From a virus (taxonomy: Duplodnaviria; Heunggongvirae; Uroviricota; Caudoviricetes): a stretch of DNA of 64,000 nt. The stretch is from the IMG/VR virus record IMGVR_UViG_2778261631_000002. One strand, given 5' to 3'. Below the pieces are notes generated by a model that did no database searches, was not told the origin of the DNA, and was given only the letters and a program-made list of their open reading frames with translations. Of this stretch, positions 48,965-50,445 are shown piece after piece (positions within the stretch are counted from its first letter, which is position 1; the number at the start of each line of letters is the position of its first letter). The position numbers were made by a program, and so were the translations under genes.

Positions 48965-49002
48965 TATGATGCAAAAAGATAGCATTCGCGACTTAAAAAT
49001 AC

Positions 49003-49019
49003 AAATTTATTAGAGCAGA
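49003..49019 (-). promoter_or_regulatory. C1 operator-like 17-mer (15/17) upstream of the immI operon
   Basis: Plus strand AAATTTATTAGAGCAGA. Confidence 0.5.
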
Positions 49020-49300
49020 TTAGCGTCGTGCAATAGATATATTATTTGTGATGAAAAATAATGCAGAGGGATATTGTAACTTTAAGATGGATATCAATAG
49101 TCGATACATAAATTAAGTTAGCAATAAACTATTAACTTAAGAAATAATGCAGATGGTGAACTTGTCTCTGACTTTTCAGCTATACACAATAAGTTAGGGA
49201 TAGCTTATAAAAAGTTGATTAATTGATATAAGTCAATGGGAGTATTCTTGTTTACTTTCCGTTCTCGTGGTAACTTCTCGCCGGTTTTTGTTTTTCTGGG

Positions 49301-49822
49301 ATGATTCTTATGTCTAAAAAGTATACTTTATGCGCTCTTGTTGTATCTGCAATTCTTCTTTCTGGGTGTCAATCTAGCGGTGCTGATTATGCTGCCGATG
49401 TTTATGATACCGCTCAATTGAATTCGAAGCAGGAAACAAAGACAGTCAATATTATCTCTGTGCTTCCAGCTAAAGTGAAAGTTGATAATAAAGCTAATAA
49501 AGAAGCGGCACAGACATTTGGTGCGGTACTGGGAGCTGTTGCTGGGGGCGTTGCCGGTTATAATGTTAAAGGCACATCGACACTGGGTGCTGTAGCTGGC
49601 GGTACTGGTGGTGCGGCTCTTGGTGCAGCGGCTGGTTCTTTGGTTAGTGATAAAACAATTGTTGAAGGTGTTTCACTGACTTATAAAGAAGGAACTAAGG
49701 TGTTCACTTCAACTCAAGTTGGTAAAGCATGCCAGTTTACAACGGGGCTTGCTGTGCTTATTTCAACTAAAGATAATGAAACTCGAATTCAGCCAAATGC
49801 TACTTGTCCAGAAAAGAAATAA
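49301..49822 (+). CDS. Lipoprotein with Gly/Ala-rich region
   Basis: Signal peptide with lipobox LSGC; AT-rich gene. Confidence 0.55.
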   Translation: MILMSKKYTLCALVVSAILLSGCQSSGADYAADVYDTAQLNSKQETKTVNIISVLPAKVKVDNKANKEAAQTFGAVLGAVAGGVAGYNVKGTSTLGAVAGGTGGAALGAAAGSLVSDKTIVEGVSLTYKEGTKVFTSTQVGKACQFTTGLAVLISTKDNETRIQPNATCPEKK

Positions 49823-49825
49823 TTT

Positions 49826-50365
49826 ATGAATAAAATTATTTTATTTCTAATCTTTTCTACGTTTAGTGTAGGCACTGCCTTGGCTAACTCGTTGCAAAGT
49901 CAAATTGCTGCTATTGCTCAAGCGGAAAATGAAGGGCGAGCTAAAGAGCAGCAAGCTGAGGATGCCAGAAAAGAACTTATTCGCCAACAAGCACAAGCTG
50001 AACGTATTAGAAGAGAAAAAGCAGCATCTGCCGCTGCTGCACGCGAAAAACAGCGTGTTGCTGCAGAAAATGAACGTAGAGCGAAACGAGAAGCCGAGCT
50101 AGCAAATGACAAGAAGCGAGATCAAGCTTATGAGGATGAGCTTCGCAAGCTGCAACTCGAAAGCATGAAACTCGAACTGCAAGCAAAAGCGGCTCGTGTC
50201 CAGCGAGAAAACGATTTTATAGAGCAGGAGTTGAAGGAGAGAGCAGCTAAGACAGATGTAATTCAGTCTGAGGCTGATGCAAATAGAAATATTTCTACAG
50301 GAAGTAAAGATTTACTGCAAAGCGAAGGAAAAGCTAGAGAGAAGAAAGCTAGCAGTTGGTGGTAG
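49826..50365 (+). CDS. Secreted coiled-coil protein
   Basis: Cleavable signal peptide then Ala/Arg/Glu-rich heptad repeats. Confidence 0.55.
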   Translation: MNKIILFLIFSTFSVGTALANSLQSQIAAIAQAENEGRAKEQQAEDARKELIRQQAQAERIRREKAASAAAAREKQRVAAENERRAKREAELANDKKRDQAYEDELRKLQLESMKLELQAKAARVQRENDFIEQELKERAAKTDVIQSEADANRNISTGSKDLLQSEGKAREKKASSWW

Positions 50366-50445
50366 TAATCACTACGATTGCGAGCATACTGTCACAAATG
50401 ACAACTCGTAGAATCTGTTAACAAACTAGATTCTACGAGGTTTCA

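Follow-up and report, generated by a model that had tools for sequence, protein, structure and literature searches.

A swappable exported-protein cassette and a candidate anti-Shine-Dalgarno hairpin ahead of the late operon of a P7-type phage-plasmid

The present analysis concerned positions 49000–50445 of a 64,000-nucleotide (nt) stretch of viral DNA (IMG/VR record IMGVR_UViG_2778261631_000002; hereafter the window), where an AT-rich pair of genes for proteins predicted to be exported is followed by a palindrome directly ahead of pmgC. The latter gene comes first in the operon of the late promoter LPsit and encodes an essential virion protein, a tail adaptor or head-tail joining protein. By sequence comparison the window is a P7-type Punavirus, that is, a P1/P7-type phage-plasmid, and positions 48900–50500 were 99.3–99.8% identical to P7, phi456, SJ46, RCS47 and other Punavirus genomes. 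Based on the anatomy of the segment, homologies, conservation and folding energies, we favour, with modest confidence, the explanation that an interchangeable cassette of exported-protein genes is combined here with an RNA hairpin that gates the translation of pmgC.

Positions 49020–50393 are one of several interchangeable cargo cassettes placed between the C1 repressor operator Oc4 and LPsit. In the mechanism that we infer from these observations, the pair would be transcribed from a promoter of its own in the AT-rich leader and would act on the envelope of the lysogen, where it may stabilise or remodel the outer membrane in the manner of YfgH and might hinder superinfecting phages in the manner of Sim. 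Because the cassette and the tail genes have no terminator between them, cassette transcripts would run into pmgC. In such read-through RNA, the left arm of the palindrome would pair with the right arm in a hairpin of 12–15 base pairs (bp) and about −20 kcal/mol that hides the Shine-Dalgarno (SD) sequence, and pmgC would stay silent in the lysogen, probably together with tub, pmgB and sit via Rho polarity. Upon induction, Lpa would activate LPsit, and transcription would start within the loop, near 50420–50421 (the seventh nt after the −10 element by sigma-70 geometry), so that the left arm lies upstream of the start. As this late RNA would lack the left arm, the SD would be free and pmgC translatable.

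The slot that holds the cassette is bounded on both sides. On the left the anchor was Oc4, at which the homology between P1 and P7 gives way to the variable cassette (similarity to P1 stopped at window position 49017), and P1/P7 similarity picked up again at the −22 box of LPsit (ACAAATGAC). According to P7 record AF503408, the left flank carries Op(c4) and the divergent c4-icd-ant1/2 immunity genes, and the right flank carries LPsit, tubA (= pmgC), tubB (= tub), tubC (= pmgB) and sit. In P1 (NC_005856), simA-simB-simC fill the slot between Oc4 and LPsit, and the sim region belongs to the eight regions of high variability and low GC content listed for P1-like phage-plasmids (PMC9603915). When the intervening content of 79 loci with both anchors was clustered, at least six alternative cassettes were found between the common pair of anchors, and every cassette met conserved sequence exactly at ACAAATGAC. 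They comprised the yfgHI cassette of the window (lipoprotein and DUF5384 protein; 20 loci and one variant at 77% nucleotide identity), a Ro157-type cassette encoding a secreted protein of 224 amino acids (aa) and a 158-aa YfjT-like secreted protein (19 loci), the sim cassette (simA, simB and simC; 14 loci), two larger sets that include additional 355–394-aa proteins (9 loci each) and singletons of various content at several loci. The majority of the listed cassette open reading frames (ORFs) had signal-peptide-like N-termini.

Two side observations concern the history of the slot. P1 SimA (52 aa, MSYKAGEVIMRKLLLPLLFMAGTVNAASSVKEICTDYTKY...; P1 4687–4845) is an N-terminal remnant of the 224-aa secreted protein (L088 2240–2914) that opens the Ro157c2YLVW-type and L010-type cassettes; given this match to the N-terminus of the larger protein, the sim cassette looks like a replacement within an older cassette. 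In addition, in genomes of the Cronobacter phage JK004 type (JK004 2892–4003), an exported-protein cassette (a 189-aa protein and a 158-aa YfjT-like protein), the promoter and the hairpin lie directly between bplB and pmgC, and the c4-icd-ant/repL immunity block of P1/P7 is absent there. The junction of cassette and hairpin is therefore older, or more mobile, than the immI insertion.

The segment was markedly AT-rich, as the initial annotation had stated: GC content was 40.0% in 49000–50445 against 47.3% in the whole window, with 31.3% in the 5′ leader (48975–49300), 42.3% in the lipoprotein ORF, 43.5% in the DUF5384 ORF and 46.7% in pmgC plus tub. The contrast was clearest at third codon positions, where GC content (GC3) was 24% and 31% in the two cassette genes, 46% in pmgC and 52.5% in tub, and 43% and 49% in yfgH and yfgI of Escherichia coli K-12. 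The low GC content, the position at the P1 sim slot and the hypervariability of the region also agree with the earlier proposal of an acquired, envelope-directed gene pair. The comparison with the P1 sim region that had been suggested held for the slot, from Oc4 to LPsit, and failed for sequence: BLASTP detected no resemblance of the cassette proteins to SimA, SimB or SimC (lowest E = 0.19 over 30 residues), so that "sim-type exclusion" is a positional analogy only, and the relatives of the pair are the chromosomal yfgH-yfgI genes. The exclusion phenotype of sim was reportedly described by Kliem and Dreiseikelmann in 1989 and by Maillou and Dreiseikelmann in 1990, and to our knowledge such a phenotype is known for sim only. 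Taken together, these findings support a reading of the pair as acquired cargo of the sim slot that acts on the envelope; exclusion is not demonstrated by them.

No convincing promoter was found in the cassette leader. Its sole sigma-70-like match (TAGATA-17-AATAAT, 49034–49062) agreed at 9 of 12 positions, and the count of such matches was not above that in shuffled sequences. The leader did not resemble the sequence that precedes yfgH in E. coli. It carries two 15-nt direct repeats, AAATAATGCAGAKGG (49056–49070 and 49142–49156), which could be regulator sites, leader peptides or chance. Inspected by eye, the repeats (AAATAATGCAGAGGG and AAATAATGCAGATGG) lie 86 nt apart, and in each an ATG starts a mini-ORF of 16 codons (MQRDIVTLRWISIVDT and MQMVNLSLTFQLYTIS).

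The first cassette gene, for which an alternative in-frame start exists at 49301, encodes a protein that begins with MSKKYTLCALVVSAILLSG followed by C and contains the lipobox LLSG/C at residues 16–20, counted from the MSKK start. Among 34 homologues, Cys20 was invariant and Gly19 nearly so. Together with a zipper of 29% Gly and 24% Ala, these features corroborated the lipoprotein with a Gly/Ala-rich region that had been proposed initially. The protein was 69% identical to E. coli YfgH over 167 aa, and a profile of the 34 homologues matched SlyB (7OJF) over the full length (E = 4.5e-9, residues 9–162 on 6–153); by profile comparison it is a SlyB-family lipoprotein with a two-helix glycine zipper. 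According to the Lol sorting rule, a lipoprotein whose residue after Cys is not Asp goes to the outer membrane. Here Cys20 is followed by Gln; lipidation at Cys20 and an outer-membrane destination are therefore predicted.

Other labels for this lipoprotein were considered and discarded. Matches of the single sequence to Pfam stayed below the cut-offs (PF05433, 18.2 bits vs. 24.2; TraT, 23.1 bits vs. 31), and TraT membership was rejected because the score was under the cut-off and the match (residues 59–145) covers the Gly-zipper region (74–112). The label "DNA methyltransferase" (PHROG 1277; RefSeq NC_050152, NC_031129 and NC_042128) was rejected because it has no sequence support, and it looks like a propagated mis-annotation. 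The P7 annotation gives Upf50.5 a 31-residue signal peptide; the lipobox instead indicates a signal peptidase II cut before Cys.

The second gene starts after a 3-nt gap and encodes a DUF5384 protein (PF17358, E = 3e-43, 147.8 bits vs. cut-off 25, residues 39–179) with 47% identity to YfgI of E. coli K-12. Its N-terminus, MNKIILFLIFSTFSVGTALA followed by NS, forms a Sec-type signal that ends ALA/N; after its removal about 159 residues remain, with an abundance of Ala, Glu, Arg, Gln and Lys. AlphaFold2 modelled a single unbroken helix over residues 2–178 (predicted local distance difference test [pLDDT] 87), in keeping with the secreted Ala/Arg/Glu coiled-coil protein recognised at first reading. 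A profile search of the PDB with the YfgI-like protein gave no match, a literature search on DUF5384 gave no result, and an NCBIfam scan of the cassette proteins returned noise only. Sequence rules, the sig_peptide features of the P7 GenBank record and the published fractionation of E. coli YfgH jointly predict that both cassette proteins are exported.

Judged by its sequence, the cassette reproduces the enterobacterial yfgH-yfgI operon in a diverged form of low GC content. Its DNA was about 69% identical to chromosomal yfgH-yfgI, for which 5420 of 5426 complete E. coli genomes gave a match; a near-identical phage-type copy, mainly plasmid-borne, was present in 182 of the 5426. The cassette was also conserved at 99% or more in 168 PLSDB plasmid records from Escherichia and Salmonella, mostly of about 90–150 kb, 151 of them non-mobilizable. 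The nearest relatives of the phage copy were other copies, with 75–89% identity against 68% for the chromosomal gene of E. coli; several of these copies lay on contigs of about 90–100 kb and the rest on short or longer ones. Two further contigs, of about 100–115 kb, carried the lipoprotein–DUF5384 pair at different loci, the downstream gene having a PF17358 match in one and being a 179-aa gene without a recorded Pfam match in the other. One of the two appears to be an E. hormaechei contig that also bears a PmgC homologue, and in the other the pair adjoins a Rep3 replication gene.

The known role of the chromosomal pair is in outer-membrane integrity, not exclusion. YfgH fractionates with the outer membrane and is predicted to form SlyB-like rings; it is required for resistance to sodium dodecyl sulfate plus ethylenediaminetetraacetic acid (SDS+EDTA) and for the stability of outer-membrane proteins, and when overexpressed it rescues the depletion of outer-membrane biogenesis genes (bioRxiv 10.64898/2025.12.22.696046). 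A genetic interaction between yfgH and lptD was described (PMC3219608), the Salmonella Typhi orthologues srgIL are induced by SdiA and acyl-homoserine lactone (AHL), and yfgI mutants were reported to be DNA damage-sensitive (PMC11619404). The requirement for YfgH, the rescue by overexpression and the lptD interaction all suit an alternative in which the cassette would simply raise fitness or act in lysogenic conversion, strengthening the outer membrane against detergents, chelators, serum or envelope stress, with no connection to phage exclusion. The regulation of srgIL by SdiA and AHL suggests an environmental role, and the occurrence of the pair at other loci on the contigs of about 100–115 kb points the same way. 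However, P1 uses the slot for superimmunity, the mostly signal-peptide-bearing and mutually unrelated products of the alternative cassettes look like the outcome of diversifying selection in phage-phage conflict, and the host already has yfgHI. This alternative is quite possible in our judgement, although somewhat doubtful.

A more far-reaching and rather improbable extension of the favoured explanation may also be formulated. The slot would then be dedicated to hypervariable sets of exported proteins (sim, yfgHI, YfjT-like sets and others) and translationally insulated from the adjacent late virion operon by the anti-SD hairpin, and in the yfgHI version a SlyB-like ring-forming lipoprotein and a periplasmic coiled coil of about 23 nm would form an unrecognised envelope-armouring or superinfection-exclusion module, offering a clue to the function of chromosomal yfgI. 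The length estimate is the product of 159 mature residues and 0.15 nm per residue.

The palindrome consists of two perfect arms around the loop GTTAACAAACT and ends 6 nt ahead of the pmgC ATG at 50446. The initial annotation had noted a long inverted repeat just before the first tail gene; its 12-bp arms and its excess over chance stood, and its loop was corrected from 12 to 11 nt (50405–50439). The 64 kb contained no more than two perfect inverted repeats of 12 bp with loops up to 20 nt, against 0.07 expected analytically and 0.05 from shuffles. The other one (CCAACCTGTAAG, an 11-nt loop and CTTACAGGTTGG at 8744–8778) is unrelated to the pmgC palindrome and lies inside a 432-aa ORF (8274–9572, minus strand) that equals P7 upf89.5 by coordinate mapping.

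Both arms of the pmgC palindrome coincide with expression signals. LPsit comprises AC, the −22 box AAATGACAA (50396–50404), the spacer CTCG and the −10 element TAGAAT (50409–50414), and forms the right anchor of the cassette. The −10 element of this annotated promoter lies inside the left arm, although LPsit is a prediction and its −22 box is weak. The right arm ends with ACGAG and is followed by G, which places the SD GAGG at the foot of the stem, with 5 nt between it and the pmgC ATG. A separate 5-bp inverted repeat, TGTCA-CAAA-TGACA (50390–50403), spans the junction of the cassette and the −22 box; it was seen in yfgHI-type and Ro157-type junctions and not in the P1 sim type. CRISPR interference roadblocks in simA, simB and simC left P1 plating unreduced (PMC10695390), whereas pmgC, tub, pmgB and sit are essential (PMC10695390; PMC9024508), implying an independent promoter before pmgC.

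Folding calculations gave different results for the two kinds of transcript. RNA with both arms folded at −20.1 kcal/mol (z = −6.4), and RNA from 50420 was unstructured (−3.2 kcal/mol, z = 0.3). Opening the SD region cost 13.3 kcal/mol in the read-through RNA versus 4.3 kcal/mol in RNA from near 50421, and this degree of occlusion was attained by none of 100 dinucleotide-shuffled upstream sequences. Across the window, P1, P7 and four diverged relatives, the cost was 13.0–16.6 kcal/mol for read-through RNA versus 3.7–5.4 kcal/mol for late RNA, with at most 1 of 100 shuffled upstream sequences matching the occlusion.

The palindrome was also conserved, a point on which its importance had been made to depend. 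In 80 IMG/VR relatives with PmgC 97–99% identical, the 11-bp core of the arms was invariant and the loop and flanks varied, and the stem was kept in relatives with PmgC 74–78% identical, namely Cronobacter phage JK004 and Salmonella, Klebsiella and Enterobacter elements. In the JK004-type clade, the −10 element changed from TAGAAT to TAAAAT and the partner base in the right arm from C to T; moreover, the stem was lengthened to 13 bp by CGG/CCG, with a loop of 6–8 nt. One variant (L103) has a U-G pair in place of U-A. In a covariation alignment of 14 distinct leaders, 92% of cells were paired, against 28–47% in slid-partner controls. Pair 27–49 was G-C in eight leaders, A-U in five and G-U in one, and three stem pairs changed on both sides.

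Farther away, the arrangement dissolves. The group with PmgC 64–68% identical has no cassette, and a GC-rich stem-loop follows bplB; in more distant relatives, including D6, pmgC is fused directly to bplB, with neither promoter nor hairpin. A profile search of genome contigs with the PmgC alignment yielded 12 loci, mostly with this fusion and without promoter or hairpin. The hairpin occurs where unterminated upstream genes abut the promoter, in few independent lineages. On the whole, the palindrome is best read as an RNA device, an anti-SD hairpin, and not as a protein site.

A different role for the same stem is that it mainly marks the 3′ end of the cassette mRNA, as a weak terminator, pause site, protective stem-loop or RNase III-type processing site, and that any effect on pmgC is incidental. 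The palindrome starts 39 nt after the yfgI stop codon, no other terminator lies between them, and the stem is strong at −20 kcal/mol. Furthermore, the stem is kept wherever a cassette abuts pmgC, the JK004-type genomes included, and is weak or absent where pmgC directly follows bplB or a GC-rich stem-loop. However, no U-tract follows the stem (GGUUUCAAUG, GGUUGGCAUG), the consensus scan made no terminator call, and the coincidence of the arms with the −10 element and the SD would be left unexplained. A stem of 12–15 bp is also shorter than typical RNase III substrates, which counts against a site of that type. We consider a mainly 3′-end role unlikely, and it would be compatible with the anti-SD hairpin rather than exclusive of it.

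An intrinsic terminator in particular was rejected: the scan found no terminator-like site between the yfgI stop and pmgC, the tail GTTTCAAT has 4 T in 8, and 5 of the 12 stem pairs are G-C. Rfam returned no family at the gathering score, and its sole overlap with 50396–50449 was a spurious mir-10 match (20.3 bits vs. 47.5).

An operator, which had also been proposed initially, now appears very unlikely; in this reading a dimeric regulator of LPsit would bind the palindrome as DNA. A perfect inverted repeat over the −10 element of a promoter, with arms invariant in the 80 close relatives, would suit such a site, as would the symmetric G-C to A-T change seen in relatives. The spacing of the half-sites, however, varies from a 13-nt loop with 11-bp arms to an 8-nt loop with 13-bp arms (24 vs. 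21 bp centre to centre), the L103 variant pairs only as U-G, which is workable in RNA and not in DNA, and the arms are themselves the spacer/−10 and the ribosome-binding site. In addition, the palindrome resembles neither the asymmetric 17-bp C1 operator nor the AAGTnACTT −22 box reported as the Lpa-binding site, and its sequence is on no other P7 late promoter. Least probable of all is that the complementarity is a functionless by-product of two constrained motifs, the spacer/−10 and the SD: both arms have another plausible function, covariation data are few and L105 and L107 lack significant occlusion, but a perfect 12-bp inverted repeat is expected 0.07 times per window, where TAGAAT becomes TAAAAT the opposite arm carries T for C, the 13-bp extension in that clade uses different bases, and no shuffled upstream sequence among 100 reproduced the SD occlusion.

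Several results weigh against the favoured combination of a swappable cassette and a gating hairpin. Compared with the late-promoter consensus AC AAGTGACTT n4 TAnnnT, built from nine annotated P7 late promoters, LPsit has 3 mismatches (−22 box 6/9), and the pattern alone was no better than chance; by its sequence LPsit is a predicted promoter only. The covariation is thin, with one clearly compensatory pair, two well-separated clades and changes in the upper stem, and each invariant arm is also constrained otherwise, by the −10 element or the SD. The group with PmgC 64–68% identical (L105, L107) showed residual complementarity, with SD occlusion that was not significant. Upstream-dependent SD occlusion was confined to LPsit and LPdar among the eight P7 late promoters tested. 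As for the proteins, the AlphaFold2 monomer of the lipoprotein was poor (pLDDT 50, 34-sequence alignment), neither cassette protein matched any PADLOC defence family at E 0.1 or better, and the host already carries yfgHI, which calls into question what it would gain from a second copy.

Two broader candidates were examined and rejected. A register-shifted covarying hairpin in the L105 and L107 leaders was set aside because the occlusion was not significant in fuller context. A general anti-SD rule for P1/P7 late promoters was rejected because only LPsit and LPdar followed it, LP23 and LPpac being within the shuffle range. At LPdar, which precedes the holin gene lydA (P7, L004 34322–34369), CCTCCT directly follows the −10 element TACCAT and is complementary to the lydA SD AGGAGG. 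Opening of the lydA SD cost 9.4 kcal/mol in read-through RNA versus 5.6 kcal/mol in late RNA, a difference that none of 100 shuffles reached. In JK004 and D6 (L120, L121), the lydA SD also pairs with upstream sequence, at other positions. With LPdar-lydA, the T4 gene e design may occur a second time, here on a lysis gene.

The coordinates of the segment and its neighbours are given in Table 1. The C4 RNA, on which the P7 annotation concurs, is divergent from the cassette, and an Rfam scan placed the C4 a1/b1 targets (RF03163) at 48890–48942. A sub-threshold Rfam match to the Hfq-binding small RNA isrK (48848–48929, minus strand; 43.7 bits vs. 50, E = 1.4e-7) overlaps the c4 a1/b1 target region upstream of C4.

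Table 1. Features of the segment and its flanks (window coordinates).
Feature	Position	Strand	Basis or remark
C4 antisense RNA, immI region	48736..48821	-	Rfam RF01695, 69.6 bits vs. gathering score 45, E = 6e-13
C1 repressor operator Oc4 (Op51), AAATTTATTAGAGCAGA	49003..49019	-	Mapped from P7 feature Op(c4), L001 3604-3620
AT-rich cassette leader	49020..49309	+	Composition, 31% GC
Phage YfgH-like lipoprotein (predicted outer membrane), P7 Upf50.5	49310..49822	+	99% identity to P7
Phage YfgI-like DUF5384 protein (predicted secreted), P7 Upf50.0	49826..50365	+	Pfam PF17358
Late promoter LPsit (Lpa-dependent, predicted)	50394..50414	+	Annotated in P7 and P1 records
Palindrome left arm, CTCGTAGAATCT	50405..50416	+	Promoter spacer, -10 element and 2 nt
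Palindrome right arm, AGATTCTACGAG	50428..50439	+	Holds most of the pmgC SD GAGG (50437-50440)
pmgC (P7 "tubA")	50446..51012	+	PHROG 1851, E = 1e-101; P1 and P7 annotation; PMC9024508
tub (51023-51634), pmgB (51649-52530), then sit	51023..52530	+	P1/P7 annotation

Annotation of the protein pair and the promoter existed already, and the mechanism belongs to a known kind; the finding therefore refines existing knowledge and brings no surprise. If the explanation is true, freely swappable and constitutively expressed cargo could sit upstream of an essential late operon, which includes the Sit tape-measure protein with its transglycosylase domain, without leakage of tail proteins in the lysogen. 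The principle of T4 gene e would then also apply to a sigma-70/Lpa promoter and where lysogenic expression borders on lytic expression, and P1 vector engineering at the sim locus would call for caution. The cassette is common (about 3% of complete E. coli genomes and 168 plasmid records) and offers a natural gain-of-function handle on YfgH, whose role is now emerging, and on YfgI. For P1, the hairpin logic appears not to have been described before.

Compared with known systems, the window is closest to P7, with 99.3% nucleotide identity across 48900–50500 and the same ORFs and flanks (Op(c4), LPsit and tubA). The P7 record names upf50.5 "outer membrane lipoprotein" and upf50.0 "membrane protein" and annotates signal peptides on both. 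The window differs from P7 by two loop-edge substitutions, which extend the perfect arms from 11 to 12 bp, and by one extra mismatch in the −22 box. E. coli yfgH-yfgI (S. Typhi srgI-srgL) shares with the phage pair the gene order, lipobox, glycine zipper, DUF5384 and a C-terminal SWW/SWF motif, and the lengths are similar (YfgI 179 aa in both; YfgH 170 aa in the phage and 172 aa in E. coli). In contrast, the phage pair lies on a phage-plasmid in an immunity-linked variable slot, has a GC3 of 24–31% rather than 43–49% and follows an unrelated upstream region.

SlyB (PDB 7OJF, 7OJG), which forms rings, shares with the lipoprotein the layout of lipobox, strand region, two-helix Gly zipper and C-terminal strands, but the relationship is distant. 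We know of no YfgI-like partner gene of SlyB. For YfgH, oligomeric rings are only predicted in the literature. P1 simABC resembles the yfgHI cassette in slot, orientation away from c4, low GC content, non-essentiality and signal-peptide-bearing products, whereas the sequences of the two are unrelated.

The closest precedent for the proposed hairpin is in phage T4. In its genes e, soc, 49 and I-TevI, long upstream-initiated transcripts hide the SD in a hairpin, the late promoter lies in the DNA of the 5′ arm, and late transcripts lack this arm and are translated, as was established experimentally (PMC3014915). The geometry in the window is the same, and by analogy the same behaviour is predicted here. 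However, the T4 promoter is gp55-dependent (TATAAATA), whereas LPsit combines a sigma-70 −10 element with a −22 box predicted to depend on Lpa. Moreover, the upstream transcripts of T4 come from early lytic promoters, whereas those proposed here would come from the lysogenic cargo cassette of a temperate phage-plasmid.

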